Below, in pieces: positions 3,780-48,158 of a stretch of 53,631 nucleotides of DNA (positions are counted from its first letter, which is position 1; every line of letters starts with the position of its first letter). A program made the position numbers and the translations under genes. This DNA comes from a virus (taxonomy: Duplodnaviria > Caudoviricetes), in the IMG/VR virus record IMGVR_UViG_3300031749_000457, positions 1-53,631 of that record; one strand, written 5' to 3'. The notes beneath the pieces are model-generated. The model was not told where the DNA came from. It did no database searches and was given only the letters and a program-made list of their open reading frames with translations.

Positions 3780-5339
3780 TTGGATATAAAAATTAATTTC
3801 CCGCTGATTAAGAAAATAAGCTCGATTATTTCGAAGCAGGCGCCGGAGCAACCAAAAAGGGAAGAAACTACAGAGACGAGCACCTACAGCGGTGTGGTTT
3901 CGTATTATTACCAGAAGACGAAGCTCGAGAGGACGAGGCTTGCTAAATACGGTGATTATGAAGAGATGGATGAAAATTACCCAGAAATTAGCTCATCGCT
4001 TGACCTCTATGCCGATAATGCTACGAAAGAGAGAGGGCAGTCTGGAGAGGTGATAGAAATTAAGTCCAGTGATTCGGCAGCTAAGAACTGCCTTGACGAG
4101 CTTATTGGAAGATTGAACCTGAATGATACTCTGTGGGATACGGCAAGGAATATGGCAAAGATGGGGGACGATTTTGATGAAGTGGTCTGTGACGAAAGTG
4201 GTGATGTTGTGTATCTGAAGAATCTTCCTGCAAGGTCGATGTTTGTTGAAGTGGATGAGTATGGGAGGCTGAAAGAAAAACCTTATGTTCAGAAGGATGA
4301 GACTGGTTCGATAGAGCTATGCAGGTTCGAGCCTTGGCAGATTATCCACTGGAAAAACGGTGGGATGAAGAGGCTGTATGGCGAAAGTGTGATGAAGTCA
4401 ATTCGCAGAGTCTATAAACAGCTCCAGATGATGGAAGATGGGATGGTGATAGCCAGGCTTACAAGGTCTCATATGAGATATAAGATACTGGTAGATGTGG
4501 AAGGGATGACGGCGGAGGAGAGAGAGGAATATTTAAGGAAAATTAAGAATGAATTCAAGAAGAAAAGGCTGATCAACCCGATAACTGGACAGTTGGAAAC
4601 GAGTCAGAACCCATTAAGCGCAGAGGAAGATTTTTACATAGGGGTTACGAAAGATTCGAAGGCAGATGTGGATGTGCTTCAGGGAGCTACGAATCTTGGG
4701 AATATCAGGGATGTGGAGTATTTTCAGACAAAGCTGTTTGCCGGGTTGAAGGTGCCTAAAGCTTTTGTAGGGTTAGAGAAGGAGGTCAAGGCTAAAGCTA
4801 CGATTGTGGAGGAGGACATACAGTTTGCAAGGACGGTTGGAAGGATAAGAAAAGGATTGAGGATTGGGCTGAAGAAACTGTTTGATTACCAGTTGATGGT
4901 TAGAGGAATAGCTCCCGTGAGGGGGCTTTACGAGATTCATTTCGCTCCTATCTCGATGGTGGATGAGATGAGGAAGTGGACGATAGAGAAGCTGAAGGCA
5001 GAGATTGCAAAGACTTATATGATTGATATGGGAATTTTAACGGATGAGTTCATTTTGAAATACTATGTCGGACTCAGCGATGAAGAGATAGAAAGACTGA
5101 AAGGAAGTAAGCTAAAGACTACGGCTAAATCCACAGGTAGTGGGCTTGGGAGAACAACTTCGATTAGGGCTGGTGAGATGAGTGGACTGGCAACGCCTAA
5201 ATTCAGTGGAATGTCGACAGCGACGAAGGTAGAAGGTGGAAATGGGCTTGATAGGGATAATCTCCATATTGCTACGCTTCACATGATGAATCTTGTTGAG
5301 ACACTGAGGGATTTGGTTGATTTGGAGTTAAATCGGTGA
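3780..5339 (+). CDS. Portal protein, T4 gp20-like
   Basis: YEEMDENYPEISSSLDLYAD, YGESVMKSIRRVYKQLQMMEDGMVIARLTR, VDVEGM, EEDFYI, NLGNIRDVEYFQTKLFAGLKVPK match T4-type portal motifs. Confidence 0.9.
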   Translation: MDIKINFPLIKKISSIISKQAPEQPKREETTETSTYSGVVSYYYQKTKLERTRLAKYGDYEEMDENYPEISSSLDLYADNATKERGQSGEVIEIKSSDSAAKNCLDELIGRLNLNDTLWDTARNMAKMGDDFDEVVCDESGDVVYLKNLPARSMFVEVDEYGRLKEKPYVQKDETGSIELCRFEPWQIIHWKNGGMKRLYGESVMKSIRRVYKQLQMMEDGMVIARLTRSHMRYKILVDVEGMTAEEREEYLRKIKNEFKKKRLINPITGQLETSQNPLSAEEDFYIGVTKDSKADVDVLQGATNLGNIRDVEYFQTKLFAGLKVPKAFVGLEKEVKAKATIVEEDIQFARTVGRIRKGLRIGLKKLFDYQLMVRGIAPVRGLYEIHFAPISMVDEMRKWTIEKLKAEIAKTYMIDMGILTDEFILKYYVGLSDEEIERLKGSKLKTTAKSTGSGLGRTTSIRAGEMSGLATPKFSGMSTATKVEGGNGLDRDNLHIATLHMMNLVETLRDLVDLELNR

Positions 5340-5394
5340 TGAATTTACAGAGCTATACACTGATAAAAGATATCTCCTCTGAAGTTTTGACTAT
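5337..5394 (+). repeat. 58-bp exact direct repeat, copy 1 (encodes the shared leader)
   Basis: TGATGAATTTACAGAGCTATACACTGATAAAAGATATCTCCTCTGAAGTTTTGACTAT identical to 12747-12804. Confidence 0.95.
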
Positions 5395-6130
5395 CCTATT
5401 TGAGGGTGGTCCCGGTAGTGGTCATTGGGGACATAAGGGCAGACCAGGTCATAGGGGCGGTTCGTTACCAAGTGAGACAAGACTGAAAGGTAGTGGCATA
5501 GCTACGAAGTTTTTTGGTATTGAAGGAGCTGTTAAAAGGGTTGCGAGTAGGTATGGTTTTGAAGCGAATTTTAGTGTTCAAGCAATAGATGAATGGGACC
5601 CACCGAGGATATTTTATACAGTTAATTTTTTTGATAAGAAGAAAAAAGAAGGTATGCGGGAGGTTGGTTTTTTTACTTTTAACTTCGCCCCTGAAGTTGG
5701 GTATCTTGAGAATTTTTCTATAAGAGGGGAATACCAGGGAAAAGGATTTGGTGGTGATGTGGTAGAGGGAGTTTTGAAAGTTGCTAAGAAGGCTGGGGTT
5801 AGTTCAATTGTTTTGGATGCTGCAGGGGATGGTCAGATAGGAAGTTATGCTTGGGCAGCTATGGGTTGGAATATTGAGGATGATAACCACAGGAAAGAAT
5901 TATGTAATAAGTTTAAAGCTCATCTTTCACGTATTGGAGTAGATACGGAGAAGGTTAATATTGAAAACGTTTGGGACATAGCCTCATTTGTTCATAATGG
6001 GGAGAAGGTTGGGAAAAAGTTTTTAATTGAAGATGTAAGAATGTGGAGAGGTGCTTTTGACCTAAAAGATAATTCAATGAGTTGGAAGATTTTTAATAAT
6101 TATATGGAAAAAAGGAAAGTAAGTAAATGA
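5339..6130 (+). CDS. Leader + GGPGSG motif + GNAT-family acetyltransferase (putative virion cargo)
   Basis: ATG at 5339 overlaps portal stop; leader MNLQSYTLIKDISSEVLTILFE; acetyl-CoA motif EYQGKGFG and GSYAWAAMGW. Confidence 0.75.
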   Translation: MNLQSYTLIKDISSEVLTILFEGGPGSGHWGHKGRPGHRGGSLPSETRLKGSGIATKFFGIEGAVKRVASRYGFEANFSVQAIDEWDPPRIFYTVNFFDKKKKEGMREVGFFTFNFAPEVGYLENFSIRGEYQGKGFGGDVVEGVLKVAKKAGVSSIVLDAAGDGQIGSYAWAAMGWNIEDDNHRKELCNKFKAHLSRIGVDTEKVNIENVWDIASFVHNGEKVGKKFLIEDVRMWRGAFDLKDNSMSWKIFNNYMEKRKVSK

Positions 6131-6249
6131 CTAAGGAATTGGTAAATAAAGACTCTGCTGAATTTCATAAAGAACTTCTTGATAATGAGGATGAAATCAT
6201 TGATGGAATTAAGAAGATTATAGCTAATAGAGATAAAAAAAAAGAGTAA
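6127..6249 (+). CDS. 40-aa charged protein coupled to the GNAT gene (possible partner/antitoxin)
   Basis: ATGA overlap upstream and TAATG overlap downstream; MTKELVNKDSAEFHKELLDNEDEIIDGIKKIIANRDKKKE. Confidence 0.6.
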   Translation: MTKELVNKDSAEFHKELLDNEDEIIDGIKKIIANRDKKKE

Positions 6250-7571
6250 TGAATAGTTATTTTCTTATAAAAGATATTTCCTCGGAGATTTTAGAAAGTG
6301 TATTAAACGCTGATAGGAGTAGAGTTTCCGAGCAGGATGAGAATAAGAAAAGAAGCGTAGGCTTTATAGATACGAATCTTGGGATTGACCATGTGATCGC
6401 AGTGTCAAAGGATTTTGACACTTACCTGTATATTGATGGAGGTGGGGCTTTCCCTTCGATTGAGAATAACTGCACGGGAGATGGTTTTGCTGGCATAAAG
6501 AAGGTAGATGATATTGGAGGGGTAATCGATAAGGATTTGATAGTGATTACGGATTGCTATTACGGAGGTTTGGCTGATTATTTGAGAAGAAAGGGAAGAA
6601 GAGTATTTGGAGCAAGTCTTGAGTGGACAAGGATAGAGAACGACAGGGTTTATGGATGGAAAAGACTCAAAGAGATGGGAGTTGGAGTTCCGAAAGGAAC
6701 GGTAGTGAAAGGGCTTGATGGTCTGCTTAACTACATCAGAAAGAATCAGGATGGGAAGAGGGTCTTTTTCATAAAGATAAGCAAATACAGGGGAAACAAG
6801 GAAACTGGAGGAAGTGTTTTAAATGATAGTGAAGCAATGACGGCAATAACTCAGGCAGGGTTTGGACCGTATTTGAAGGATTTGGAGATACTGGTTCAGG
6901 ATAGGTGTCCTGGGGTTGAATTGGGGTTTGATGCGTTTTTTAGCGGGGATTTTTTGAGACCGTATTTCTATACAATCGAAGTTAAGGGAAGCGGGACTGT
7001 TGCGAAGGTAGTAGAAACTTGTGCGATTGATGACCTGATACTGAATAAGATTAAACCCTCACTGGTTGAGACGGATTACAGGGGGAATATATCGTTTGAG
7101 TTCTTTTATGATGGAGAGAAAGTTTATGTAATAGACGTCTGCTCAAGAAACCCTTATCCTTGTTCTTCTATTCAGGCTCATTTCATCAAGAATTATTCCG
7201 ATGTGCTGTGGGCAATTGGTTCAAAGAATAACATAAGGCTTGAAATTGATAAGAAATATTATGCTCAGGTTGGGGTATATACGGATGAGCCTGATACATG
7301 GAGAGTCATTCACTTTCCCAATAAGATTCGAGACAGGGTGGGGTTTAGAAGAGTTGTTATAAAGGATGGTCAGTATTATTTTGTGCCTGGGGATACTGTT
7401 GTTGCTACGGCTGTTGGTATGGGAGATACCCCCGAGGAAGCGATTAAGGATGCTGGCTCAATTGCAGAGCAGATAGAGTGCAGCAATACTTACGTGCCGG
7501 CGGATTTTTTTGATAAGGCGATGGGAGTAATTGAAGAAGTCAATAAGATGGGTAAGGGGATGGAGTTTTGA
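6249..7571 (+). CDS. Leader + PurD/GARS-like ATP-grasp ligase
   Basis: Leader MNSYFLIKDISSEILE; RVFGASLEWTRIENDR..KEMGVGVPK, ILVQDRCPGVELG and YRGNISFEFF..VYVIDVCSRNPYP resemble GARS ATP-grasp blocks. Confidence 0.7.
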   Translation: MNSYFLIKDISSEILESVLNADRSRVSEQDENKKRSVGFIDTNLGIDHVIAVSKDFDTYLYIDGGGAFPSIENNCTGDGFAGIKKVDDIGGVIDKDLIVITDCYYGGLADYLRRKGRRVFGASLEWTRIENDRVYGWKRLKEMGVGVPKGTVVKGLDGLLNYIRKNQDGKRVFFIKISKYRGNKETGGSVLNDSEAMTAITQAGFGPYLKDLEILVQDRCPGVELGFDAFFSGDFLRPYFYTIEVKGSGTVAKVVETCAIDDLILNKIKPSLVETDYRGNISFEFFYDGEKVYVIDVCSRNPYPCSSIQAHFIKNYSDVLWAIGSKNNIRLEIDKKYYAQVGVYTDEPDTWRVIHFPNKIRDRVGFRRVVIKDGQYYFVPGDTVVATAVGMGDTPEEAIKDAGSIAEQIECSNTYVPADFFDKAMGVIEEVNKMGKGMEF

Positions 7572-7864
7572 AGGTAGTATTTACGGATGTTGACCAGTGG
7601 TGCGAGGATGAATATCAGGAAGGAAGTTGGCTATCTGAGGAAACTGGTTGGTGGTATCCTGATGGAAGAATTCTGGTTTATAAGCCAGGAAATTCTTTTT
7701 TGCAGAGAATCGGGATAGCAGTGCATGAGTGTCTGGAATACATAATGATTATGAAACTGAATTGGATTAGAAACATCTCGCATTTCATAGCAAATGTGTT
7801 TGAGTTTGTAATTAGTCTTGGAACCGCAAATCAGAGCTGGGCAAGACAGGTCTGGAAGAAATGA
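7568..7864 (+). CDS. Small protein with HExxE putative metal-binding motif
   Basis: IAVHECLEY...ISHFIA; overlaps both neighbours. Confidence 0.6.
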   Translation: MKVVFTDVDQWCEDEYQEGSWLSEETGWWYPDGRILVYKPGNSFLQRIGIAVHECLEYIMIMKLNWIRNISHFIANVFEFVISLGTANQSWARQVWKK

Positions 7865-10800
7865 TGGGATTGCAAGAAAATTGCAGTTTGCTTACAGAAG
7901 GTAAATCTTACGGTGGGCGTAGAGTCTTTGCCTCTGAGAAGTCAATACTGATGTCTACACTTGTAAGGCTGATAGGAAGTTTGAAGGGAAACCTTGACAG
8001 GAAGATGATTAGAGAAGCTGAGGATTCATACAAGGCTTTAAAGGAAGAGTTCAGAGAGGCAATGTTTGGAATACTGTCTGCTTATCAAAATGGCCAGATA
8101 ACAGATGAAGTTCTTGAGCAGATGTGGAGAGGAGAGATAAAGGACGCTTGGGAAAAGGCATATATGTATGGTGTTAGGTCGGTAGGAAATCCATTTGGAA
8201 TCTGGGAAGAAGATAAGAGCTGGATAGCTGGGGCTGAGAGGGAGGAGTTTGGTTATCTCGGGAAATTTGTGGAGGACATAAAGAATAACGAATTGGTGAT
8301 GAGCCTTGAGGACAGGCTCGATATGTATATTGAGACGCTTGATGGAGTGTTTTATCACGGGAAGGTTGATGGGTCGCCTGAGTTTGTAAAGATTCACTGG
8401 ATACTGAGGGAAGCAAAGCACTGCCCAACATGTATTAGATTGGCAGCAGGAAGTCCTTATACAAAGAAGACCCTGCCATGTGTGCCGAAAGATGGAACGA
8501 GTGAATGTATGGTCTCAAAATTTACAAGCATATATACAGATAAAGGGTGGCTACCAATTTATAAGGTTAAGGTTGGCGACTTAGTCCTAACTCATAGAGG
8601 ACGTTTTAGGCGTGTCATTGGAACTTTGAATAATATCCCATTCAAAGATAGACGAGTTACCAAAGATGTTGTTATTGTATTTGTAAAAGTTGATGGTCGC
8701 AAAAGAGAAGTTAGTATCCCTGTAACAGAAGACCATGAATTCTTTATGGCTGATGGAACATGGAAAAAGGCTCATTTGCTGAAACCTGGAGATTGCGTTT
8801 CTATTCTTGGTAAGACGTGTAAATCTTGTGGCAAAACTTTTCCATTTCTTTATAGATGTAAAAAAATAGGAGAAAAAGAATATTGTTCAGCTTGTTGTAA
8901 TGTTCCTGCCAATAGAAAGGTAAAAGAGCTTGTAGCTTCCGGAGCTTTTTCCCCTCAACATAATCGTGGTAAAAAGCTGGAGGATATATTTGGGAAAGAA
9001 AAAGCAGAAGAAATACGAAAGAAGCTTATTGGAAAAAAGGCGTGGAATAAGGGAATTCCATTTGAAGAATTATATGGTGAAAAGGCTATTATCTTGAAAC
9101 AAAAATTTAGTAGTTTGTATAAAGGGCGTAGCCTTGAAGAAAGATTTGGGCAAAAAGCGTTAGAAATAAAAGAAAAGATATCTGGGGCGTCTAAGAATAT
9201 TCCGAGAGAGAAATTATTCGGAGGCATTGAAAATGCTATTAGATTAACAATTGAACGTAATAAAAGTATGAGAGGGAAGAAATATGAGGAACTATATGGA
9301 GAGGAAAGGGCTGCTGAAATTAAAAAGAAGATGATATCTGTTATTTTAAAACAAGGAGTTATAAAAAGGTCTTCTTTGGAGTATTTAATGGAGGGAATTC
9401 TTAATAAACTTCAAATTGATTATAAATGCCAAGAGCAGATAGGTCCTTATGTTGTTGATTTTGTTCTCCCTGAATATGGAATTGTAATAGAATGTGATGG
9501 AGAGTATTGGCATAATAAACCAGGGGTAAAAGAAAAAGACCTTCGTAAAGATGAATATATTAAATCATGCGGGTTTGATGTTATTCGTTTTGGAGAGCGT
9601 GAGATAAGAAATGATATTCAGAGTTGTTATGAAAGACTTGAACGGTTAGTTTCAAATCATGATGGAAGGTTTTTGACTATCCCTGCTGAGGTTGTTCGTA
9701 TAAAAAGAAGAAAACCAATCCGTGGTTCTGTTAAGTATGACCTTACAGTTGAGGAAGACCATAGTTATGTAGCAAAAGGCTTTGTTGTTCACAATTGTCT
9801 TTCCGCCTGCAAGTGTGAGCTTCGTTTTGAATACGCAGATGAGAAGCCAGCGCCTGAAGAGTTTGTGATTAAAGGGCCAAAGGAGCCGTATGTTCCGAAA
9901 GGTTATAGGCTACCAACGGATAAAGAGGCAGATAAATTGGGGGCAATGTATGCTGAGATTGAAAGGCTCCGTGGGTTGATAAATGTAACCAGTGGTGATG
10001 TTAAGAAAGAATTGATTCGACAGCGAAGGGATATTAATGCAGAGATGATTGATTTTATGGAGAGGCACAGGATTTATTGGACGCCTGGGAGTCAGGTTCA
10101 GAAGGTAAAGTTTATTGAGTCGATTGTTGATGAAGTGGAAAAAGAATTTTTACTTGAGGGAGGCCCGGGTTCTGGCCACTGGGGACATAAGGGTAGACCG
10201 GGGATAAGAGGAGGTTCTTTACCGAGTAGTGCTGGTCTTTCTTTAAGCATAGATTATAAAGCGCATATGATTTCTGCTGCAAAAGATTTGAGTAAGTTAT
10301 CTGCTAATGAAAGGTTGGATATTGCAGAGAAAGCTTCTTCTTGGACTCTACGTAGGCTTATTAATGATCCAAAAGATAATATAAGAGCTGTTGTTGCCAA
10401 GAGAATTAAACAAGAAGGTTTAAGATTAATGGTAAATGATGAAAGTGAAGAAGTTAGGGAAATTGTAGCAGCAAGATTAAAAGACTCGAAGTTATTAGAT
10501 AAAATGTCTTCAGATAAAGATCCCTTCGTTAGAGTTGCTGTAGCGAAAAATAAGAATACGAGTCAAGAAACATTAATGAAGTTAATCAATGATAGAAAGG
10601 AAAAAGTTAGGTCTGAAGTTGCTAAAAATTTAGATATTGGAAATTTATCATTAATGATAAAAGACGAGAGTCAAGCAGTAAGAATGGAAGTTGCGAAGAG
10701 AATAGACATGCCTGGATTGTATAAGATGATGCGTGACGAATCTATTTATATCAGGGAAATTGTTGTTAATAGATTAGATTATGAGGGTTTAAAGAAGTTT

Positions 10801-11640
10801 TTAACTAAAGAAAAAGGAGAAGACTTAAGGAAAGTAGCTGAATTAAGAATTAATAGAATAGAGGATTTGACGACTGAATATATAAAAGGGGCAAGAGATT
10901 TTTTAGATGGTAAAACTGATAAGTTGCCACCACTATCAAAAAATGCAGTCGATAAAGTTAAAAGTGATAGTGAATACAGTTCGAGAATGTTTGATGAGGT
11001 TTTCAATGGGACCAAATATGAGGAAATTCACAGACTTTTAAGAGGGCAATGGCTTAGTGATGCGAATAGTAGTGGTGCGGCTATTTTAAGAGATTCTATT
11101 AAAAGGCAGTTTGGTGGAGAGGTATATCATCACGATGATATAAAAGATTTTAATAAAGAAGTTAGGAAATTTTATAAAAGTTTAGGTTTGGGCAGAAAAG
11201 ATGTGGATAAATATGTGAAAACAGTTTATGCGATAACTCAACAGCAGTTGAATGCAGTATTCCCAAATACTGATACTATTGAGCTTTACAGAGGGACTAC
11301 TAATAGTGAGGTGAAAAAAGTTAGTGGTGAGTTTATTGCGAGGCAAAATTGTTTGTCTTCTTGGACTTTTGAAAAAAATGTTGCCTTTAATTTTGCTGCT
11401 AAAGAGAGGGGTGTTGTTGTGAGTGCTACATATAACAAAAAGGATATTTTTTGCACTCATTTACTGTATCATTATGGGGTTGAGAATGAAGCTATGGTAA
11501 TAGCTAAAGGAGGGAAAAAAGTTAAAGTTATTAAAGGCGAATATTTGGTAAAAGAATCAGAAAAGGTTTTACCGATTATTATAATTGACAAGACAGACCT
11601 TGATGGTAATTGGATAAAAAAGGTTAGGGAAGAAAAATAA
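7861..11640 (+). CDS. MuF-like head morphogenesis protein with intein, fused through the GGPGSG motif to HEAT-like repeats and an ADP-ribosyltransferase-like domain
   Basis: IHWILREAKHCPTC...PKDGTSE|CLSACKC (MuF-type Cys motifs after splicing); FLLE-GGPGSGHWGH at 10147-10224; repeats DxxxxVRxxVAxx; IELYRG, LSSWT, VENE catalytic-type motifs. Confidence 0.75.
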   Translation: MMGLQENCSLLTEGKSYGGRRVFASEKSILMSTLVRLIGSLKGNLDRKMIREAEDSYKALKEEFREAMFGILSAYQNGQITDEVLEQMWRGEIKDAWEKAYMYGVRSVGNPFGIWEEDKSWIAGAEREEFGYLGKFVEDIKNNELVMSLEDRLDMYIETLDGVFYHGKVDGSPEFVKIHWILREAKHCPTCIRLAAGSPYTKKTLPCVPKDGTSECMVSKFTSIYTDKGWLPIYKVKVGDLVLTHRGRFRRVIGTLNNIPFKDRRVTKDVVIVFVKVDGRKREVSIPVTEDHEFFMADGTWKKAHLLKPGDCVSILGKTCKSCGKTFPFLYRCKKIGEKEYCSACCNVPANRKVKELVASGAFSPQHNRGKKLEDIFGKEKAEEIRKKLIGKKAWNKGIPFEELYGEKAIILKQKFSSLYKGRSLEERFGQKALEIKEKISGASKNIPREKLFGGIENAIRLTIERNKSMRGKKYEELYGEERAAEIKKKMISVILKQGVIKRSSLEYLMEGILNKLQIDYKCQEQIGPYVVDFVLPEYGIVIECDGEYWHNKPGVKEKDLRKDEYIKSCGFDVIRFGEREIRNDIQSCYERLERLVSNHDGRFLTIPAEVVRIKRRKPIRGSVKYDLTVEEDHSYVAKGFVVHNCLSACKCELRFEYADEKPAPEEFVIKGPKEPYVPKGYRLPTDKEADKLGAMYAEIERLRGLINVTSGDVKKELIRQRRDINAEMIDFMERHRIYWTPGSQVQKVKFIESIVDEVEKEFLLEGGPGSGHWGHKGRPGIRGGSLPSSAGLSLSIDYKAHMISAAKDLSKLSANERLDIAEKASSWTLRRLINDPKDNIRAVVAKRIKQEGLRLMVNDESEEVREIVAARLKDSKLLDKMSSDKDPFVRVAVAKNKNTSQETLMKLINDRKEKVRSEVAKNLDIGNLSLMIKDESQAVRMEVAKRIDMPGLYKMMRDESIYIREIVVNRLDYEGLKKFLTKEKGEDLRKVAELRINRIEDLTTEYIKGARDFLDGKTDKLPPLSKNAVDKVKSDSEYSSRMFDEVFNGTKYEEIHRLLRGQWLSDANSSGAAILRDSIKRQFGGEVYHHDDIKDFNKEVRKFYKSLGLGRKDVDKYVKTVYAITQQQLNAVFPNTDTIELYRGTTNSEVKKVSGEFIARQNCLSSWTFEKNVAFNFAAKERGVVVSATYNKKDIFCTHLLYHYGVENEAMVIAKGGKKVKVIKGEYLVKESEKVLPIIIIDKTDLDGNWIKKVREEK
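8506..9795 (+). mobile_element. Intein (430 aa) carrying a Zn finger, NUMOD3-like repeats and a DUF559/Vsr-like endonuclease
   Basis: Starts CMVSKFTSIYTDKGW, block B VTEDHEFF, ends KYDLTVEEDHSYVAKGFVVHN followed by Cys; VVDFVLPEYGIVIECDGEYWH...KDLRKDEYIKSCGFDVIRF. Confidence 0.88.
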
Positions 11641-11657
11641 ATGAAGATTAGGTTTTT

Positions 11658-12539
11658 ATGCTCACTAACTACACAATTGTAAAAGATATATCCTCTGAGG
11701 TGCTAACTGCGTTATTTGAAGGCGGTCCTGGCAGTGGTCACTGGGGTCATTCGGGAAGGCCTGGTTATGTTGGCGGTTCACTTCCAGGTGGCGTTTTGCC
11801 AGATGGAATTGTTGCCGGAACGAAAGAAGGTAAGGAATGGGTTAAGGCGAACCAAGATAGGTATAACAGTGACAGGGAATTTAGAATATTAGTTGACACT
11901 GTTACTTTATTTACGCAAGGTGTTTATGATAAATTGAGAGCTGCGTCACGCTATGCAGATGAAGGGGAAGAAGGAGTTAAGGCAGAAGGATTTATCGATA
12001 CTGAATGGCTGGATGATAAGCTTGGAAGTGCAGCTTTTCCGCTTTTAAAGATTAAAAATTTTTTTGAAGGGCAGGATGCGAAAAACTCAGATGTTTGTTC
12101 TATTAAGGAAGCTGGGAGAGTATTAAATGAGGCAGTGGATAATTCACCAAAAAGAGAAATTTTGTATCGTGGTGTTTCAGGTTTTTTAGGTAGAAAAACT
12201 ATTGATTCTGTAATAGCGCTTAAGGAGGGAGATGTTTTTAGTATTGTTGGAGTTTCGAGTTTTACTGATAATAGAGATGTTGGAGAAATGTTTATGAGGG
12301 GGAAGGTTCCAGGGATTAAAAAACCAAGTAAACCTCCGCCCATTCAAATTTTATTCATAGCCAAGGGAGCGCCTGGGCTTTCGGTTTCTGCACTGAGTCC
12401 TTATAAGCAAAGTGAGTTTTTGTCGAGGGGAACTTTTAAGGTAGTTGGCAAGAGAGAAAAGGTTGTTCGGGTTTCAAGAGGGAGTTATCGTGAAATCACA
12501 GTTGAGATGGAGTATATTGGGAAGGTTAGTGAAGGTTAA
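11658..12539 (+). CDS. Leader + GGPGSG motif + R-S-E-type ADP-ribosyltransferase (putative virion cargo)
   Basis: Leader MLTNYTIVKDISSEVLTALFE; ILYRGV, VSSFT, YKQSEFL (QxE) then GTFKVV as in VIP2/C3/Alt-type ARTs. Confidence 0.8.
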   Translation: MLTNYTIVKDISSEVLTALFEGGPGSGHWGHSGRPGYVGGSLPGGVLPDGIVAGTKEGKEWVKANQDRYNSDREFRILVDTVTLFTQGVYDKLRAASRYADEGEEGVKAEGFIDTEWLDDKLGSAAFPLLKIKNFFEGQDAKNSDVCSIKEAGRVLNEAVDNSPKREILYRGVSGFLGRKTIDSVIALKEGDVFSIVGVSSFTDNRDVGEMFMRGKVPGIKKPSKPPPIQILFIAKGAPGLSVSALSPYKQSEFLSRGTFKVVGKREKVVRVSRGSYREITVEMEYIGKVSEG

Positions 12540-12540
12540 A

Positions 12541-12744
12541 ATGGGGAAAAAATACAAAAAGAAAAAAGAAGAAGATTGGGTTACTGAATTGTTTAAAGAA
12601 CCCATTTCTGGGCTTTTAAAGAAGAAAAGCCGTTTGCCAGAAGGTAATTTTAATGAAGGCGTATTAGATTATACTGATGGTTCTGTTGAATTAAAGGATT
12701 TAGATAAATTGATAAAGAGTATTGTTTCAAAAGCTTTGGGATAG
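12541..12744 (+). CDS. 67-aa protein directly after the ART gene (possible immunity/partner)
   Basis: ATG 1 nt after the ART stop; C-terminal part of track ORF 12445..12744. Confidence 0.6.
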   Translation: MGKKYKKKKEEDWVTELFKEPISGLLKKKSRLPEGNFNEGVLDYTDGSVELKDLDKLIKSIVSKALG

Positions 12745-12746
12745 GT

Positions 12747-12804
12747 TGATGAATTTACAGAGCTATACACTGATAAAAGATATCTCCTCTGAAGTTTTGA
12801 CTAT
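12747..12804 (+). repeat. 58-bp exact direct repeat, copy 2
   Basis: Identical to 5337-5394. Confidence 0.95.
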
Positions 12805-13084
12805 GCTATTTGAAGGCGGTCCTGGTAGTGGTAATTGGGGGCATAAGGGAAGGCCGGGTATGAGAGGAGGAAGCCTTCCTACAAAGGGCACCTCTATTAT
12901 GAAATCTCTTATTAAAAGTGAAAAAGGAGGAATAAGGATACCAAAAGTCAGCAGTAAGTTATGGAGAGCAGCGAGGACGGCGAGAAATATTGAGGTCGTG
13001 GCTTCTGGAAGTCCGATGAAAATGCTAAAGAGGGCAATAAATATACTTCTCGGAAGGTCAATTGTTAGCAGAATTTACAGATGA
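12749..13084 (+). CDS. Leader + GGPGSG motif + short basic domain (putative internal head protein)
   Basis: MNLQSYTLIKDISSEVLTMLFE-GGPGSGNWGHKGRPGMRGGSLP followed by a Lys/Arg-rich tail; start taken at ATG 12749 by homology to 5339. Confidence 0.75.
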   Translation: MNLQSYTLIKDISSEVLTMLFEGGPGSGNWGHKGRPGMRGGSLPTKGTSIMKSLIKSEKGGIRIPKVSSKLWRAARTARNIEVVASGSPMKMLKRAINILLGRSIVSRIYR

Positions 13085-13097
13085 TGAGGAGGAGAGA

Positions 13098-13298
13098 ATG
13101 ACACAGCAGGTAAAAAGACCCGTAAATAAGGAGTTGAGGTTAAAGAATGCGATTAAGGTTTTGGAGGATGCTGTAAAAGGTGGGTTTCAGGGTAATATAA
13201 CTTTCCCAATAAGGGATGGAGAAGTTGGAATGGCAAAGCTTGAACAGTTTGTGGATTTAGAGAGCCAGTTCCAGCTTCTTGTAGAGAAAGGAACCTGA
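13098..13298 (+). CDS. Small hypothetical protein
   Basis: SD GAGGAGG then ATG 13098; GFQGNITFPIRDGEV. Confidence 0.65.
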   Translation: MTQQVKRPVNKELRLKNAIKVLEDAVKGGFQGNITFPIRDGEVGMAKLEQFVDLESQFQLLVEKGT

Positions 13299-13299
13299 T

Positions 13300-14988
13300 A
13301 TGCCTTATCCAAATTTTCATGCGGCAAGGGTTAGAGACCCTGATGAGTTTATAGAGGGGACGTTCAGAAATGTGAAGATAAGGCCTGGGGTAAATCTAAT
13401 AGCAGGCAAACTGAAGAAGGATGGGAAAGATGGTCCGATGACGGCGCAGTCGTATCATTTTGATAAGTCAAAGTTTACAGTGGACCAAGCCAAGAAGTGG
13501 TTAAGGAAGCACAAGATTAAGACGATACTTTTTGAACCTGCCGAGGAAAAAGAAGTTGAGGAGATGAGTCAGATTGCGAAGGAAATTTATGACGAGCTCT
13601 GCAAAACACCTGGATTGAAGAAAAGAAGTAAGGGCAAGGGTAGGGGGCTTGCTCGTGGGAAAGGAAGAGGACCACTCGGTATCCCATTTGGAGAGGTTAC
13701 GACGACAGCGAATATTGCACCTAATTTTCAGTTTGGTGGTTTTGGAATTGTGAAGAGGAAAAAGAAGAAGGAGATAACAGACCAAAAAGTTATTGCCGTT
13801 TCTTCTCCAGATAGTATGTTTGCTCTTAAGGGAAGTTATGAAGAGCTGGGGGAAAAGATAAGAAGAGCCTTAATTGATAACGACAATTTTGGAAAGTTTC
13901 CAGAGATATTGTTTACTTTTCCAAAGAAGGTCTTTATTAGGCTTGGAGGCCCTGAAGGAGAAAAGTATTTTGAAGTTGAATACAGCCTTGAAGGCGATGA
14001 GGTAAGGCTCGGTGCATCGAGGGAGATTGAGAGGCAGGTTAAGTTCGTGGTTAAGGAGATGGCAGAGGAAGTTAAGGCTTCACTTCTTGGTAGGCTTGAT
14101 GAGAAGAAGTGGAGCAAGGCTTTTATGAATGAGCTTCCTGATTCTTCATTTGCTTATATAGAGCCAGGGGGAGAGAAGGATGAGGAAGGGAAGACGTATC
14201 CAAGATATTTAAGGCATTTCCCTGTAAAGGATAAGGAAGGGAACTGGGACAGAGCACACCTGATAAACGCACTGGCACGGTTGAAGCAGATAGACAAAAA
14301 GACTTCTCCTTGGCTAACGGATGAAGCGAGAAAGAAGATTTTATCAGTGATAAAGGCTGGGTATAAGGCTTTAGAGATGGAATGGCCTGAAGATTTAGAG
14401 GAAATGTTGGGAACAGAGAAAGGAGTGTTTATTAGCAGACTTGCTGAGGAAGTCCTTAGTGATATTTTTGAAGGAGGTCCCGGCAGTGGTCATTGGGGTC
14501 ATGCGGGAAGATCAGGGATGAGGGGAGGTTCAGCTCCAGGAGGTGGGGTTGCTTTCAGGGTTAAAGGTGGATTGCCGAAGTCGCTTGGAGCTGCGGCTCT
14601 GGTAGATTTTGGAAAATACTACACCTCCTCTGGTGGTCTGAAGATTAACGAGTATAAGCAGTTAAGCGATGATATGAAGATGTCTGTCCTTAAGCACGGG
14701 GTTGAGTCTTATAAGGAGCAGTATATCCCAAAGGCACAGCAGGGTGGATTATCAAAAGAAGCAATGGAGTTGAATAAGAAGATTGGAGCGCTTGAAGGTA
14801 TGAGGAGGTCAGCTCTTAAAAAGGCCGAAGGGCTAAGCGGTAAGGAACAAAGGGCAGCATATCATATTGCGGTAAGTTTACAGGAAAGGGCAATGAGGTT
14901 AGCTGGTGAAATGAGGGCAAAGGCTTCTGAGGTTGTTGCTGGGACCGCAGCTACTGTTAGGGCTGCAGAGGCACAGCCAAGAGCTTAG
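13300..14988 (+). CDS. Multi-module putative internal head polyprotein with an internal GGPGSG motif
   Basis: N-terminal PYPNFHAARVRDP module, basic KGKGRGLARGKGRGP segment, WSKAFMNELPDSSFAYIEPGG...HLINALARL module, then SDIFE-GGPGSGHWGHAGRSGMRGGS at 14458-14538. Confidence 0.7.
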   Translation: MPYPNFHAARVRDPDEFIEGTFRNVKIRPGVNLIAGKLKKDGKDGPMTAQSYHFDKSKFTVDQAKKWLRKHKIKTILFEPAEEKEVEEMSQIAKEIYDELCKTPGLKKRSKGKGRGLARGKGRGPLGIPFGEVTTTANIAPNFQFGGFGIVKRKKKKEITDQKVIAVSSPDSMFALKGSYEELGEKIRRALIDNDNFGKFPEILFTFPKKVFIRLGGPEGEKYFEVEYSLEGDEVRLGASREIERQVKFVVKEMAEEVKASLLGRLDEKKWSKAFMNELPDSSFAYIEPGGEKDEEGKTYPRYLRHFPVKDKEGNWDRAHLINALARLKQIDKKTSPWLTDEARKKILSVIKAGYKALEMEWPEDLEEMLGTEKGVFISRLAEEVLSDIFEGGPGSGHWGHAGRSGMRGGSAPGGGVAFRVKGGLPKSLGAAALVDFGKYYTSSGGLKINEYKQLSDDMKMSVLKHGVESYKEQYIPKAQQGGLSKEAMELNKKIGALEGMRRSALKKAEGLSGKEQRAAYHIAVSLQERAMRLAGEMRAKASEVVAGTAATVRAAEAQPRA

Positions 14989-15124: not shown

Positions 15125-15553
15125 ATGGACTGGTTGTATATAATGATTCATCACAGTTTAACTAAGGACGGTCAAACTGTATCGTGGCAGGCAATAAGAA
15201 GGTATCACACAAAAGAGCTTGGATGGCTGGATATTGGGTATAACTGGGGGGTAGAGCTGGTTAATTCTGAGTATGAGATTTTGGTTGGAAGGCCTTTTGA
15301 TATGCCAGGTGCGCATTGCAAGGAGGCGGAGATGAACAGCAAGGCTCTGTCCATTTGCTTTGTGGGAAACTTCGACGAGGAAGAAGTCCCGCAGGCAATG
15401 TGGGACAAGGGAGTGAGGTTTGTTAAGTCGCTTGTAAGGGTATTCAATATTCCAGTAAGGAATATAGTTGGGCACAGAGATTTCGCTGCTTATAAAACTT
15501 GCCCTGGCAGACTATTTTCAATAGAGAAGTTCAGGATGGAGGTAGCTTTATGA
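15125..15553 (+). CDS. N-acetylmuramoyl-L-alanine amidase (Amidase_2/T7 lysozyme-like endolysin)
   Basis: [38 protein letters not shown] zinc-amidase motifs. Confidence 0.92.
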
Positions 15554-15924
15554 GGAAGATTGTTTTTATTTTGATGGTTTTGGCTTCTTTATTCATGCCA
15601 GTTTTTGTATTTGGCGAGACAATTGCCTGGGAAAACCCAACTGAATATGTTGATGGGACTCCGCTTTCTGAGCAGGAAAGGGGGCAGTTAAGGACACACC
15701 TGTATTGGTCTTTATCGAGCGGTGGACCGTGGACAGAGTTTGCAGTTGTTGGGAATGGTGCGAACAGCTGGACTGGGAAGCTTCCAGCTTCGAAAGGTGC
15801 GGTTGCCTACTATACGGCGAAGTCTGAACTAAATAGCTTGCTTTCGGACTATGCAGAAGTGGTTAGCTATACAGTCCCTTTCGTTCCGACGAAGAAACCG
15901 GGTGGCCTGACTATATCGCCGTAG
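15550..15924 (+). CDS. Exported protein with signal peptide and fibronectin-III-like beta domain
   Basis: ATGA overlap at 15550; [22 protein letters not shown] then [16 protein letters not shown]...[14 protein letters not shown]. Confidence 0.65.
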
Positions 15925-16058
15925 TGATTGCAATTTTGATGACGATATTGGGAATCATCATGATATTGAAAGGGAAGACAGTATTTGGCTTGATAATTAT
16001 AGGATGTGCAATATTGTTTTTGATAATTTGGTTTTATTTAAGGAAAAAGGCGAGGTGA
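15924..16058 (+). CDS. 44-aa two-TM membrane peptide (holin/antiholin candidate)
   Basis: GTG overlaps previous stop; two hydrophobic stretches and a basic tail RKKAR. Confidence 0.5.
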   Translation: MIAILMTILGIIMILKGKTVFGLIIIGCAILFLIIWFYLRKKAR

Positions 16059-16064
16059 AGTGGT

Positions 16065-16298
16065 ATGGAAGAACAGGAAAGGTATCTCAAGGAGACTCCT
16101 TTTAAGTATGTAATAGCAAGGGGTGCGAAGAAGCTTTTAACGGAGATGACGTCTGTTAAATTTCTCCTGCTTGTCTTTATTGGGATTGGAATATGGCAGA
16201 GGTTTATAAGCGACTCTATTGGACTTGGTGCTGCGCTGGTTGTAGTTGGTTTGAGAGAAATTGATTTCGATGGTTTAGTGCGTAAAGTTAAAGTGTAG
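16065..16298 (+). CDS. Holin-like membrane protein
   Basis: Two hydrophobic segments, basic C-terminus, near endolysin, SD GAGGTG. Confidence 0.55.
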   Translation: MEEQERYLKETPFKYVIARGAKKLLTEMTSVKFLLLVFIGIGIWQRFISDSIGLGAALVVVGLREIDFDGLVRKVKV

Positions 16299-16310
16299 GA
16301 GGATAGATAT

Positions 16311-16436
16311 ATGAGAACTATAATATTAATGGCATTGAGTTTTTTAGCAGGGGTTTATGCTTATAAATATAGAGAAGGCTTGAGGGGATTGGTTAAGAGA
16401 TTGTTTAGAAATGGATTCAATAGAAAGGAAGCTTGA
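16311..16436 (+). CDS. 41-aa membrane-anchored peptide
   Basis: SD AGGAGG; MRTIILMALSFLAGVYAYKY then basic amphipathic tail. Confidence 0.55.
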   Translation: MRTIILMALSFLAGVYAYKYREGLRGLVKRLFRNGFNRKEA

Positions 16437-16820
16437 GTGATTCCATTTAGCTGGAAGATTGTTGGTTTGGCTGTGATTATTTTTGCTCTAATTGCTTTTG
16501 GGTTTTATTTATGGGACAGAAGCGCAAGCGGCAAATTAGAGAAGAAATTGATTGAAGCTGAAAAGGAAGTAGAGCGGTTAAGGTATGAAAAGGAAACTAA
16601 GGAGACTGAGTGGAGCAGCAGAGAAAAGGAGTATCAGATAAGAATTAAGAGTATAAATGATAGTCTGAAGAAAAAGGAGTTTGAGGTAAGAAGGCTTGAG
16701 GAGAAGATTAAAGCATTACAGACAGAAAGGGAGAATATTGTTATTCCGGATGCTCCTGATGAGATTGTTGATGCATTTAGAAAGGCTGGATTTAGTTCTT
16801 GCACGAAGCTTAAGAAATAG
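16437..16820 (+). CDS. Inner-membrane spanin (Rz)-like protein
   Basis: N-terminal TM followed by long coiled coil, in lysis cassette. Confidence 0.55.
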   Translation: MIPFSWKIVGLAVIIFALIAFGFYLWDRSASGKLEKKLIEAEKEVERLRYEKETKETEWSSREKEYQIRIKSINDSLKKKEFEVRRLEEKIKALQTERENIVIPDAPDEIVDAFRKAGFSSCTKLKK

Positions 16821-16836
16821 TTTTGCGGGAGATTTT

Positions 16837-17022
16837 ATGTCAGGACCTATTATACCAAAGTGGTTTGCTTTACTGGTAATAGTTTTTTGGTTGATACCTG
16901 CACTGGTGTTAGTTGGTTTGCTTGTTTATTTTATAACGGTAAATCGGTATGGGTCTGCGATAATAGTGTTGATAGCACTTGCAGTTTACTGCATGTATGC
17001 GTTTAGGGAGTTGAATGATTAG
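16837..17022 (+). CDS. Small two-TM membrane protein
   Basis: ATG 16837 after GGGAG; two long hydrophobic stretches. Confidence 0.55.
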   Translation: MSGPIIPKWFALLVIVFWLIPALVLVGLLVYFITVNRYGSAIIVLIALAVYCMYAFRELND

Positions 17023-17478: not shown

Positions 17479-18768
17479 GTGTCAAAGCAGCTTCTTATAG
17501 AAACTATACCGGTAGAGTTTACAATTCTTGAGGAGGCGAGTCAGAAGAATGGTGGAAGGATGAGGGTGAAGGGGATATTTACAGTTGCCGATGAAATAAA
17601 TGGAAATGGAAGGGTTTACAGGGAGCATATCCTTGATAGAGAGATAGAGAAGCTGAAGGAGCTTATGGCTGAAAACAGGGTATTTGCTGAAGCAGACCAC
17701 CCTGAGGATGGAAAGTCAAGGATTTCCAATACTGCCGCAATGCTGACGGAGATAGAAAAGCAGGTAGTAAATGGAAGGAAAGAATATGTAGGTGAAGCTG
17801 TAATCCTGAACACAAGTAAGGGCAAGGACCTCCAGGAAATCATAAGAGCAGGAGGTAGGGTTGGAGTTTCAAGCAGAGGCTGGGGGTCATTGATTAAGGG
17901 TAACTGGCATGGGAGAACGGCTGATATTGTTCAGGAGGATTACACACTGAAAACGTTTGATTTTGTGATTGGACAGAGCACGAAAGATGCTGAGGTCACG
18001 CAGTTTTTTGAGCAGATGGATGTATTAAACATCCTTGATACGGACGAGGGTCCGAAAGAAAACATGAAAGGAGGTAAGACTGTTATGGAGATTAAAACAG
18101 TGGATGATTTAAAGAAGGCTTATCCAGAGCTTTGTGAGCAGATTGTAAAAGAGGCTCTTTCTGAGAAGGAGAAGGAGATTAAGGAATCTCTTGAAAAGAA
18201 TTTTGAGGATAGGGTGATGAAGGAAGTGGAGGCCAAAAGAGAGGAGATTAAGGAAGAGGTTATCAAAGAGATAAAAAATTCAGAAGAGATTCAGACGATG
18301 ATTTCAACCCTTGTAGAGATTGGGAAGCTTGTAAAACCTTACATCTCTGAGGCAAAAGGTGATGAGGAAGAAGAGGAGGATGAGGAAGAGGTTGACAGGC
18401 TGAAGGCAAGGATTTCTGAGCTTGAAGCTGAGCTTAAGGCTCTCAGGAAGGCAAAGCAGGAGGCAGAGGAGAAGGAGAAGGTAGCAAAGAAAATTCAGGA
18501 GGTTACGGCAGGGAAGAAGTTTGAGAAGCTGCTGATTGAGAGGCTTTCTAACTGCCAGACAGTGGAGGAGGTTGAAAAGAGGCTTGCAGAAGAAGAGGCT
18601 TATATCCAGAGGTTGATTGGAGAGGTTGGAGCAGGTGATTTGCCGAAAGGGAAAGGGCAGGTGCTTGATGAGAATAAGCAGGATGAGATGGATGAGGTGA
18701 AGAGACGTCAGAGAATACTTGCTGGTGTTGAGGAAGATATTGCAAAACAGAAAAGGGCATCTGCATAA
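17479..18768 (+). CDS. Prohead protease (T4 gp21-like) fused to C-terminal scaffold
   Basis: VKGIFTVADEINGNGRVY, EADHP, GVSSRGWGS, QEDYTLKTFDFV; acidic coiled-coil C-terminal half; precedes capsid gene. Confidence 0.9.
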   Translation: MSKQLLIETIPVEFTILEEASQKNGGRMRVKGIFTVADEINGNGRVYREHILDREIEKLKELMAENRVFAEADHPEDGKSRISNTAAMLTEIEKQVVNGRKEYVGEAVILNTSKGKDLQEIIRAGGRVGVSSRGWGSLIKGNWHGRTADIVQEDYTLKTFDFVIGQSTKDAEVTQFFEQMDVLNILDTDEGPKENMKGGKTVMEIKTVDDLKKAYPELCEQIVKEALSEKEKEIKESLEKNFEDRVMKEVEAKREEIKEEVIKEIKNSEEIQTMISTLVEIGKLVKPYISEAKGDEEEEEDEEEVDRLKARISELEAELKALRKAKQEAEEKEKVAKKIQEVTAGKKFEKLLIERLSNCQTVEEVEKRLAEEEAYIQRLIGEVGAGDLPKGKGQVLDENKQDEMDEVKRRQRILAGVEEDIAKQKRASA

Positions 18769-18887: not shown

Positions 18888-19988
18888 ATGGATCCAAGGA
18901 AATACTTAATCGAGGAAAATCCCGAGAGACAGAAGAAGTGGGCATATCTAACCGAGGGGCTGGATAGGGAGAAGAGGCTTCAGTTGGAGGTGCTTCTTGA
19001 GAATCAGGAAGCTTATTTCAGGTTTTTGCAGGAAACATCTCAGATTTCGAATGTGGGGACTTTTACTACCTTTGCTTTTCCGATGGTAAGGAGGATTTTT
19101 CCCAAGTTGGTTGCTCAGGAGCTTTGTTCTGTCCAGCCTATGATGCAACCTACTGGAAAAATCTTCTATTTAGATTTCAAGTATGGGACAACGAAGGGAG
19201 GAATTTCAGTAGGAGATAGGCTTGATGTGAAGGGAAAGGATGCAAAGGATTATGCCACAAGGACACCTGAGACTGGAGAAGTTCCAGAAATAAATTTTGA
19301 TATTTCTTCTATAACGGTTGAAGCGATTGAAAAGGCACTGAAGGCGAAGTGGACGATTGAGGCACAGCAGGATCTCAAGGCATACCATGGGCTGGATGCA
19401 GAGAGCGAGCTGATGACCGTGCTTTCAGAGGAGATAATCAGAGAGATTGATATGCTTATTATTGACGGGATGCTCAATGCAGCAAGCGCCGGGAATGTGA
19501 ACTGGAATAAGAATATGCCGAATATGGCTCCGTGGACAAATATTGACCCGAAGATTTATCAGGCCACACTATATGATGCTATTGTAGATGCAAATAATCT
19601 GATTTTCAAAAAGAGGTATCGGAATGCCACTTGGCTTGTAGCAGACCCTGATACCTGCACTCGCCTTGAGAAGCTTGAGGGCTTCAAACTGACTGAGACT
19701 GTAGATGATGCCATTTACAACATTGGAATTCATCAGTTTGGAGTTCTGAGGAACCGGTGGGTCGTTTACAAGCATCCGTGGTTTGTGCCGAATAAGATTC
19801 TGGTGGGCTACAAGGGAACATCCTGGCTCGACACCGGCTATGTGTATGCTCCTTATATACCGCTTTATACGACTCCTCTTTTGATTGACCCTGATGATTT
19901 TACACCGAGAAGGGGAATGATGAGCAGATTCGCTCATAAGGCGGTAGTGGGAGATTGCTATGCAACGGTAACCCTGGTTTCATCGTAA
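18888..19988 (+). CDS. Major capsid protein, T4 gp23-like
   Basis: LLENQ, FPMVRRIFPKLVAQELCSVQPM..PTGKIFYL, LKAKWTIEAQQDLKAYHGLDAESEL, GYKG..DTGYVYAPYIPL, DFTPRRGMMSRF. Confidence 0.95.
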   Translation: MDPRKYLIEENPERQKKWAYLTEGLDREKRLQLEVLLENQEAYFRFLQETSQISNVGTFTTFAFPMVRRIFPKLVAQELCSVQPMMQPTGKIFYLDFKYGTTKGGISVGDRLDVKGKDAKDYATRTPETGEVPEINFDISSITVEAIEKALKAKWTIEAQQDLKAYHGLDAESELMTVLSEEIIREIDMLIIDGMLNAASAGNVNWNKNMPNMAPWTNIDPKIYQATLYDAIVDANNLIFKKRYRNATWLVADPDTCTRLEKLEGFKLTETVDDAIYNIGIHQFGVLRNRWVVYKHPWFVPNKILVGYKGTSWLDTGYVYAPYIPLYTTPLLIDPDDFTPRRGMMSRFAHKAVVGDCYATVTLVSS

Positions 19989-48140: not shown

Positions 48141-48158
48141 AGAAGAAAGGAGACGATG

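Follow-up and report, generated by a model that had tools for sequence, protein, structure and literature searches.

The 53,631-nucleotide stretch of viral DNA analysed here (Caudoviricetes; IMG/VR record IMGVR_UViG_3300031749_000457; hereafter the window) contains a cluster of genes, lying in a T4-type head module, in which unrelated cargo domains are preceded by a related leader peptide and, in five of six genes, by a conserved glycine-rich tag (Table 1). On balance we favour the reading that these genes belong to a phage with a T4-like head and encode its head-packaged effector and internal proteins, which would be targeted by the leader or by a MuF-like domain and cut directly before the tag by the phage's own S77 protease.

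Leaders, tags and cargo of the cluster

The tag, GGPGSG[HN]WGHxGR[PS]GxxGGS, was found in five copies, all on the plus strand, against an expectation of 0. A degenerate DNA pattern back-translated from the first 10 tag residues gave exactly five plus-strand matches in the window and 0 in 100 shuffles, and a six-frame peptide search of the whole window by regular expression returned the same five tags and no sixth copy, exactly those that the initial annotation of this DNA had listed. In 220 pairwise codon comparisons among the five copies, 84 codons were identical, 104 differed synonymously and 32 non-synonymously; judged by its codons, the tag is maintained by purifying selection at the peptide level. 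Eleven tag positions were invariant across an alignment of 85 copies. Gly was invariant at positions 6, 9, 12, 15 and 18, and this Gly-X-Y rhythm suggests an extended conformation. It resembles a collagen repeat, in which Gly recurs at each third residue for as long as a triple helix requires, but spans only 4-5 triplets.

A related leader was present in six genes, being N-terminal in those that start at 5339, 6249, 11658 and 12749 and internal, in degenerate form, in those that start at 7861 (amino acids 745-766) and 13300 (amino acids 370-391). This set of four plus two had been proposed from inspection of the sequence, and a hidden Markov model (HMM) of the leader only, searched in all six frames, selected the same six genes and nothing else, the weakest match being the 6249 gene (E 0.027). 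The leader MNLQSYTLIKDISSEVLT[IM]LFE, with variants, starts the 5339, 11658 and 12749 genes. That of the 6249 gene, MNSYFLIKDISSEILE, has 16 residues, 10/16 of them the same as in the leader of gene 8594 of the related locus L007 (L007:8594). The four N-terminal leaders measure 16, 21, 22 and 22 amino acids, in line with the ~10-20 residues of T4-type propeptides, and all six leaders terminate in [L/I]-x-E (LFE in three, LLE, IFE and ILE), the ILE belonging to the tag-less 6249 gene. In an AlphaFold2 (AF2) model computed with a 24-sequence alignment, residues 3-22 formed one helix (predicted local distance difference test, pLDDT, ~87) that ended at E22, and the tag was coil (pLDDT ~50-56). The 5339 and 12749 leaders agreed at 20/22 codons, while the tags behind them differed at 12 synonymous codons; because of this difference, the near-identity of the two leaders suggests recent gene conversion, or else a nucleotide-level constraint at gene starts.

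Table 1. Genes of the cargo cluster and head module, with leaders, tags and family matches (positions in the window)
Feature	Position	Strand	Evidence
T4-type portal	3780..5339	+	Pfam Portal_T4 1.4e-53, 182.7 bits (cut-off 22.9); phrog_213 portal 1.8e-52
Leader (5339-5404), tag (5405-5470), GNAT acetyltransferase cargo	5339..6130	+	Acetyltransf_1 2.6e-6
Short leader (6249-6296), no tag, ATP-grasp-like cargo	6249..7571	+	purD-like 1.7e-7, under curated cut-off
Small open reading frame, 98 amino acids, without leader or tag	7568..7864	+	4-nucleotide overlap with both neighbours
MuF-like N-domain, intein (8506-9795), internal leader (10093-10158), tag (10159-10224), HEAT, DRAT-like ADP-ribosyltransferase	7861..11640	+	
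Leader (11658-11720), tag (11721-11786), ADP-ribosyltransferase cargo	11658..12539	+	Atlas features 0.96 to ADPrib_exo_Tox clusters; structure, template modelling (TM) score 0.63
Leader (12749-12814), tag (12815-12880), 65-amino-acid basic tail	12749..13084	+	Homologues at same position in L007, L008
Small open reading frame, 78 amino acids, without leader or tag	13062..13298	+	No Pfam or PHROG family match
Fusion: N-part (13300-14406), internal leader (14407-14472), tag (14473-14538), helical basic C-domain	13300..14988	+	
gp21-type prohead protease (amino acids 1-200) with acidic coiled-coil, scaffold-like C-half	17479..18768	+	Peptidase_S77 2.1e-14, 53.9 bits (cut-off 27); phrog_207 head maturation protease 8e-37
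gp23-type major capsid protein	18888..19988	+	Pfam Gp23 1.9e-64, 218.8 bits (cut-off 24.4)

The cargo behind the leaders is diverse, and its initial assignment to GNAT, ATP-grasp, HEAT plus ADP-ribosyltransferase (ART), ART and basic domains was upheld by Pfam, by a purD-like match and by Atlas features and structure. The 5339 cargo had in addition a rimI-like match (1.6e-4, under the curated cut-off), and the 6249 cargo matched biotin carboxylase at 0.014. The 11658 gene had no match in Pfam, a sequence search of the PDB returned nothing usable for it, and no sequence homologue of its cargo was present among 863 candidates. An AF2 model of the protein built from the single sequence reached a pLDDT of only 33.6 and was discarded. 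The cargo carries the motifs YRG, SSF and QSE at amino acids 168-172, 199-204 and 251-256. No family was matched by the 13300 gene in Pfam, PHROG or PDB searches, and an Atlas search with its N-part gave TM scores of at most 0.32 over the query and named no family. The leaderless open reading frame at 7568 had no match in Pfam and PHROG scans. Both leaderless frames (7568-7864 and 13062-13298) overlap their neighbours inside the cluster, and they may be chaperones or antidotes for the adjacent cargo.

The 7861 gene (1259 amino acids) is the most composite of the cluster, with Pfam matches to Intein_splicing, DUF559, HEAT and DRAT. Its 430-residue intein (amino acids 216-645; intein C-terminal region 8.4e-9) carries a DUF559/Vsr-like endonuclease, has the borders ...GTSE|C...VVHN|C and sits directly ahead of the Cys motif of the MuF-like protein; homologues of the N-domain in P0020, P0025 and P0026 are intein-free. 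In a comparison of profiles by hhalign, the N-domain family aligned with the MuF family over 191 columns (Prob 55%, E 1.2e-4), including the C-x-C motifs. A second intein lies in a head gene of the window, the large terminase (489-1742, amino acids 107-524, with a LAGLIDADG endonuclease). Both inteins are absent from close relatives, and the portal frames of L008 and L009 have insertions of their own, measuring 947 and 846 amino acids respectively against 519 in the window.

The cluster is preceded by the intein-bearing terminase gene and then by the portal gene. The portal, protease and capsid proteins all score above their curated cut-offs, as in a T4-type head module, and the flanking of the cluster by Portal_T4 and Peptidase_S77 genes agrees with its initial placement between a T4-type portal and a gp21-type protease. 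The placement has to be amended on one side, where an amidase gene and small membrane-type frames (15125-17458) intervene before the protease. This interval resembles a lysis cassette, being composed of an Amidase_2 gene and small open reading frames with hydrophobic stretches. The 42 homologues of the protease all share D73-H74, S131 and D161, and H74, S131 and D161 would form the catalytic triad by analogy with the H-S-D triad of T4 and SPN3US, as given in the accessible text of PMC5694885. The protease-scaffold protein contains 19 [LI]xE motifs, or 44 per 1000 amino acids, compared with 9-14 in most other genes, and 5/8 of those in the capsid protein fall in its N-terminal 49 residues. By analogy, the enrichment appears where T4 biology predicts it, in the protease-scaffold protein and at the capsid N-terminus.

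Module shuffling and spread of the tag

A search with leader plus tag found 29 proteins, in which the cargo behind the tag was a GNAT domain, an ATLF-like or other HExxH peptidase, a PI3/PI4-kinase-like domain or a basic C-domain. The gene order in L007 is terminase, portal, MuF-like protein with tag, kinase-like cargo, small basic protein, two genes, protease and capsid. The 13300 gene of the window corresponds in both L007 and L008 to two separate genes, one for the N-part (amino acids 1-262) and one for leader, tag and C-domain, the latter domain having homologues in P0011, P0015, P0016 and P0018. The GNAT cargo of the 5339 type is in L008 the last module (amino acids 975-1188) of a 1190-residue MuF-like polyprotein with two tags, and the short leader of the 6249 type heads an unrelated, tag-bearing cargo in L007:8594. 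From these comparisons, modules have clearly been shuffled at the leader/tag junctions. The plug-and-play arrangement suggested at the outset is thereby borne out, the GNAT domain being a separate protein here and a C-terminal module in L008, and one leader type heading unrelated cargo.

Fusions to the portal were also observed. In L030 (7982-11614) the portal is fused to NUDIX and then, past a D|tag junction, to an ART, and in L062 (3145-6111) it is fused to NUDIX and, past a D|tag junction, to a further module. An ADP-ribosylglycohydrolase gene, possibly an antidote, follows the portal fusion in L030 (12155-12943). L062 is a prophage region of Clostridiales bacterium CCNA10 that also has genes for MuF, DUF2213 and capsid, and another tag-bearing prophage region, L081, lies in Oxalobacter paraformigenes HOxBLS.

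A scan of IMG/VR yielded 33 loci in 31 records, with the strict tag pattern in 30 loci and often multiple copies per giant open reading frame. Head genes were recognised at 23/33 of these viral loci. One of the polyproteins, of 1365 residues, is encoded in L021 (8150-12244) and has four tags in which I or V replaces the Arg. Species-representative genomes of prokaryotes gave 47 tag loci, mostly in Clostridia and also in Oxalobacter, Methanothrix and others, and a local HMM detected a MuF gene near the tag in 32/47 of them. A tag profile of 30 columns, derived from the 85 copies and searched against 1.84 billion representatives, matched 5,922 proteins (cluster representatives) at E<=0.001, of which 908 reached E<=1e-10 and 123 reached E<=1e-30; a few giant polyproteins among the matches contain as many as 9-10 matched stretches. 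The median tag-to-tag spacing was 227 amino acids, and the first tag lay at most 60 amino acids from the N-terminus in 81/147 proteins. Among the top 25 proteins, 7 contained ART-PolyVal; the other domains seen in them were ADPrib_exo_Tox, DRAT, Zeta_toxin, 2'-5' RNA-ligase-like and PI3_PI4_kinase, and further PolyA_pol, MuF, an XkdF-type protease and inteins. This set of domains is the one known from published polyvalent proteins, and the profile matches place the tag at junctions in a very wide range of such phage proteins. Its spread, the MuF-like N-domain split by an intein and the fusion origin of the 13300 gene go beyond what the initial annotation had noticed.

Within the literature searched, we came across no published account of the tag. 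No Pfam or NCBIfam model covers it, its strings were not found in a full-text search whose reach excludes subscription journals, and searches on polyvalent proteins with prohead protease, and on glycine-rich sequences with head maturation protease and ADP-ribosyltransferase, returned nothing on it. Papers that mention DUF2213 gave, by their titles and the first lines of their abstracts, no hint of studies on how specifically it cleaves. The main text of PMC5512222 contains none of the words glycine, linker, low complexity and disordered, and that of PMC5576092 none of glycine, linker, motif and cleav. A tblastn search with the 48 amino acids of leader plus tag against 50,697 deposited phage records gave nothing at E<=10, a result that says little because BLAST filters low-complexity sequence and may thereby have hidden much of so Gly-rich a query. 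With the tag-bearing polyprotein P0037 and an ART from L017 as queries, tblastn returned cultured-phage ART domains only, and the tag region was never matched.

The residue before the tag and the head protease

The sequence ahead of the tag was compared within and between 119 polyproteins with at least three tags each (478 tags). At position -1 the mean within-protein majority was 0.91, and between proteins the residue varied (2.38 bits), being K in 44 proteins, L in 33, R in 17, N in 9, A in 8 and E in 3. Agreement within proteins at positions -2 to -8 was only 0.38-0.57. Each class of residue at -1, which would be P1 of a cleavage site, came with its own preferences at P2-P4, such as R/K at P3 in the L and A classes and I/L there in the E class. 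As read from the alignments, the constancy of position -1 within proteins, its variation between them and the class-specific preferences upstream together bear the signature of cleavage by a protease immediately ahead of the first Gly. In the lineage of the window, comprising the window, L007, L008, L009, L012 and L028, P1 was E at 24/24 junctions, with L or I at P3 in 21 and F in 3, so that the E|G bond resembles a cleavage site of the head protease. The initial annotation had proposed this bond as the site of the head protease, and the comparison sustains it, both through these junctions and through the change of P1 with the protease family elsewhere.

The absence of structure in the AF2 model, the clear shuffling of modules at tag junctions and the common descent of paralogous copies would also suit a tag that acts as a flexible linker or recombination junction and stays uncleaved, the constant residue before it stemming from repeat duplication. 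We consider this unlikely. If duplication were the sole cause, the residues at -2 to -8 would be expected to be about as constant as that at -1, which is not what the agreement values show (0.38-0.57 against 0.91); a passive linker leaves unexplained why eleven positions are invariant in 85 copies despite scrambled synonymous sites; and P3 and P1 obey the gp21 rule at every one of the lineage junctions.

Comparison with the resident proteases indicates that P1 follows the head protease family. S77 proteases went with E in 5/5 records (four viral records and the window), P3 being L, I or F. Canonical DUF2213 proteases, which match the PHROG head maturation protease at 6.6e-83, went with D at 31/31 loci (7/7 viral records and 24/24 loci in prokaryote genomes), and divergent DUF2213-like proteases with L or A in 4/4. 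S78 was paired with K in 1/1, and S78_2 with K in 3/4 and with E in 1/4. HK97-type proteases cut after Lys.

Processing at the tag by some other enzyme, either a zincin-like metallopeptidase of polyvalent proteins or the tag itself by autoproteolysis, seems improbable to us. Metallopeptidase processing of polyvalent proteins was proposed by Iyer et al. 2017 (PMC5512222, accessible text), and HExxH or ATLF-like cargo is common behind the tag in relatives (P0004, P0007, P0020 and P0025-P0027). However, Pfam, PHROGs and NCBIfam identified no metallopeptidase in the window cluster, and P1 follows the prohead protease family. As for autoproteolysis, the junction has no Ser, Thr or Cys nucleophile for an N-O or N-S shift, because P1' is Gly, and a single, fixed mechanism of self-cleavage is hard to reconcile with P1 residues as varied as K, R, D, E, N, L, A and F.

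Several observations weigh against cleavage and targeting as we favour them. The link between P1 and the protease is not one to one, as S78_2 is paired with E in L014. In L021 (93% complete), which has four LxE|tag sites, no S77 protease was detected by Pfam or by the profile of 42 homologues, and none of S77, S78, S78_2, DUF2213, ClpP and S49 was found in five K-type records, two of them complete. The counts of P1 against protease are not independent events, because few large clades underlie them. On the side of the tag, the 6249 gene has a leader and no tag, so that cargo of this phage does not always need one, and the capsid and scaffold proteins are without it, so that the protease can cut where there is no tag; the best match in a cultured phage, a MuF-ART fusion of Bacteroides phage Versailles, also has none. 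On the side of targeting, the assignment of the 7861 N-domain to MuF is moderate, given the hhalign probability above and the failure of Pfam to detect Phage_Mu_F (PF04233) either in the 7861 gene (E<=0.01) or in its intein-free homologues (E up to 1).

In the mechanism that we prefer, a precursor would consist of up to three parts ahead of the cargo. A targeting part, either the helical leader of 16-22 amino acids or a fused MuF-like or portal domain, would bring the cargo into the prohead; it would be followed by an [L/I/F]-x-E cleavage site for the phage's own gp21-type (S77) prohead protease and, in five of the six genes, by the unstructured tag of ~20 amino acids, GGxGSG(N/H)(W/F)GHxGRPGxxGGS, right after the scissile bond. 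Inside the prohead, the protease would cut E|G, the leader would be discarded and the tag would become the new N-terminus of a cargo that is predicted to be present in virions and to be delivered into the host. Cleavage ahead of the tag is the step for which the sequences argue most strongly. The tag, present in thousands of phage polyvalent effector proteins, would behave as a portable junction cassette with the four preceding residues tuned to the resident protease, which would let new cargo join either as a gene of its own or as an extra module of a polyprotein. A double-glycine bacteriocin leader, judged by its consensus, was dropped as a model, the leader being unconserved outside the lineage and the conserved elements being the tag and a variable P1.

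After cleavage the tag might dock on the prime side of the protease, hold the cargo on the DNA or portal, or lead ejection. An AT-hook has an R-G-R-P core flanked by basic residues. With cleavage as we propose, the tag could serve mainly to bind DNA in AT-hook fashion through its G-R-P core, keeping the cargo attached to the genome and carrying it along at ejection; G-R-P-G is nearly invariant, Arg occupies its position in 85/85 copies of alignment A5 (the pattern used to select these copies demanded R or K there), and the universality of the tag would be accounted for if it bound something that phages share whatever their portal or protease. We nonetheless judge this role very unlikely, as the tag has a single Arg (x-G-R-P-G) and not an R-G-R-P core, as Arg is replaced in 4/4 tags of L021, and as acidic residues occur at tag positions 16-17 in many lineages (E in 65/119 proteins). 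With the R-G-R-P core absent and the Arg missing from the L021 tags, an AT-hook was not retained as the tag's principal role.

Genomic setting and relation to known delivery systems

Beyond the head module, two genes of family-9 glycosyltransferases (heptosyltransferase-like; 20065-21099 and 22015-22983) lie directly after the capsid gene. An SU10-type adaptor (23347-24045; a weak match, under cut-off) and a podophage GP4 fibre gp80 domain (34846-35391) suggest a short-tailed virion with T4-type head genes. At the end of the window (48123-53631) are genes for a RadC-like JAB protein, for HSDR_N fused to N6_Mtase and for a specificity subunit that bears an unusual GAD domain; they may be phage-borne or, because the record is classed as a provirus, host flank. 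Strand asymmetry in the window is extreme. The plus strand has 14,921 G and 7,056 C, a GC skew of 0.36, the value of each 2-kb bin falls within 0.19 to 0.52, and all long open reading frames that are not shadowed by longer ones lie on this strand. Candidate promoters and terminators between 3300 and 20100 were no more frequent than in shuffled sequence.

By analogy, the system would work like the capsid targeting sequence (CTS) and internal proteins of T4 and like the propeptide processing of phiKZ and SPN3US, a likeness of arrangement. According to the accessible parts of the reports, CTS propeptides of 10-20 residues are removed by gp21, which cuts T4 Alt at ITE-6 and LTE-619 (PMC5694885), and T4 internal proteins are diverse, with only the CTS conserved and able to carry foreign proteins (PMC3012670, PMC5694885). 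The window has in common with T4 a short N-terminal propeptide, [L/I]-x-E ahead of the presumed cut, unrelated cargo that includes an ART, and T4-type portal, protease and capsid genes. It differs in the conserved tag of ~20 residues after the cut site, none being reported for T4 in those parts, in the clustering of its genes between portal and protease, in the MuF-like nature of one carrier and in tail genes that look podovirus-like. In phiKZ and SPN3US, as far as the accessible text of PMC5694885 and PMC10052503 goes, ejection and inner-body proteins likewise have propeptides cut after Glu (A-x-E or S-x-E) by a gp21-related protease, and many paralogous cargo proteins share conserved N-termini; however, those propeptides are mostly >100 amino acids, and no common motif after the cut is reported there beyond a preference for Ser at P1'.

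By domain content, the proteins would belong with polyvalent and MuF-effector proteins. Polyvalent proteins, as described in the accessible text of PMC5512222, are encoded in head modules and have effector domains arrayed in series or joined to MuF or portal, and their packaging and injection are predicted there. The common repertoire comprises ART-PolyVal, ADPrib_exo_Tox, GNAT, Zeta toxin, 2H/RNA-ligase-like domains, kinases and NUDIX; in the window itself, GNAT and DRAT were matched. At least two effector-type domains are combined in the 7861 gene (MuF-like, HEAT and DRAT-like ART), and relatives have 2-10 modules. Unlike those of polyvalent strings, most modules of the window are genes of their own that start with an individual leader, and whereas PMC5512222, in the same text, proposes processing by a metallopeptidase, the P1 pattern implicates the prohead protease. 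MuF polymorphic toxins (Jamet et al. 2017, PMC5576092, accessible text) are alike in the N-terminal MuF carrier, the variable C-terminal toxic or enzymatic domain and the position beside the portal, and unlike in that Pfam fails to recognise the MuF domain of the window and that the cultured MuF-ART fusion is without a tag.

That the cluster encodes something other than injected effectors, namely assembly factors that are retained in the prohead or exit from it, or MuF-type polymorphic toxins for inter-bacterial competition, is to our judgement a minor possibility. The C-domain of the 13300 gene, helical, basic and scaffold- or core-like, is kept in all close relatives, as an assembly factor might be, and in its accessible text PMC5576092 proposes MuF toxins as inter-bacterial weapons. 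Against both stands the cargo, a variable collection of enzymes (GNAT, ART, ATP-grasp, kinase-like, zincin) of the same classes as reported injected effectors such as T4 Alt (PMC5512222, accessible text); against toxins in particular, no immunity gene was identified beside the cargo, although no systematic search for one was made. Packaging for delivery into the host continues to be the role that we favour.

The position of the tag also recalls the demarcation motifs of polymorphic toxins. VENN in CdiA and DPxGL in Rhs are such motifs, and the Rhs motif is also a cleavage site. As there, a short conserved motif stands at the border of a constant delivery part and an exchangeable cargo; the sequence and the route are different, the motif here lying after the presumed cut and the cutting being assigned to a separate capsid protease.

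A bolder extension, which we favour only tentatively and think doubtful as a whole, would make the tag a universal, portable signal that calls for a cut ahead of it and for its own retention, accepted on the prime side by several families of prohead protease. The four residues ahead of it would then encode the specificity of each phage's own protease, any effector domain could move between unrelated phages and still be processed, and the exposed Gly-rich N-terminus would retain the cargo in the DNA-filled head and lead its exit through the portal.

Phages inject enzymes that disarm the host, many of them strung together as polyvalent proteins. A conserved junction cassette preceded by residues that follow the protease offers a concrete and testable processing rule for polyvalent strings, one that would account for the exchange of cargo modules and would allow the ends of mature proteins and the specificities of proteases to be predicted straight from metagenomes. 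Should the tentative extension to several protease families be true, protease specificity would be readable from the genomes of thousands of uncultured phages. Leader, cut site and tag would together be a compact signal for loading foreign proteins into the heads of several phage lineages, reaching beyond the CTS system of T4, and under the same extension the cassette could serve to load chosen proteins into capsids.

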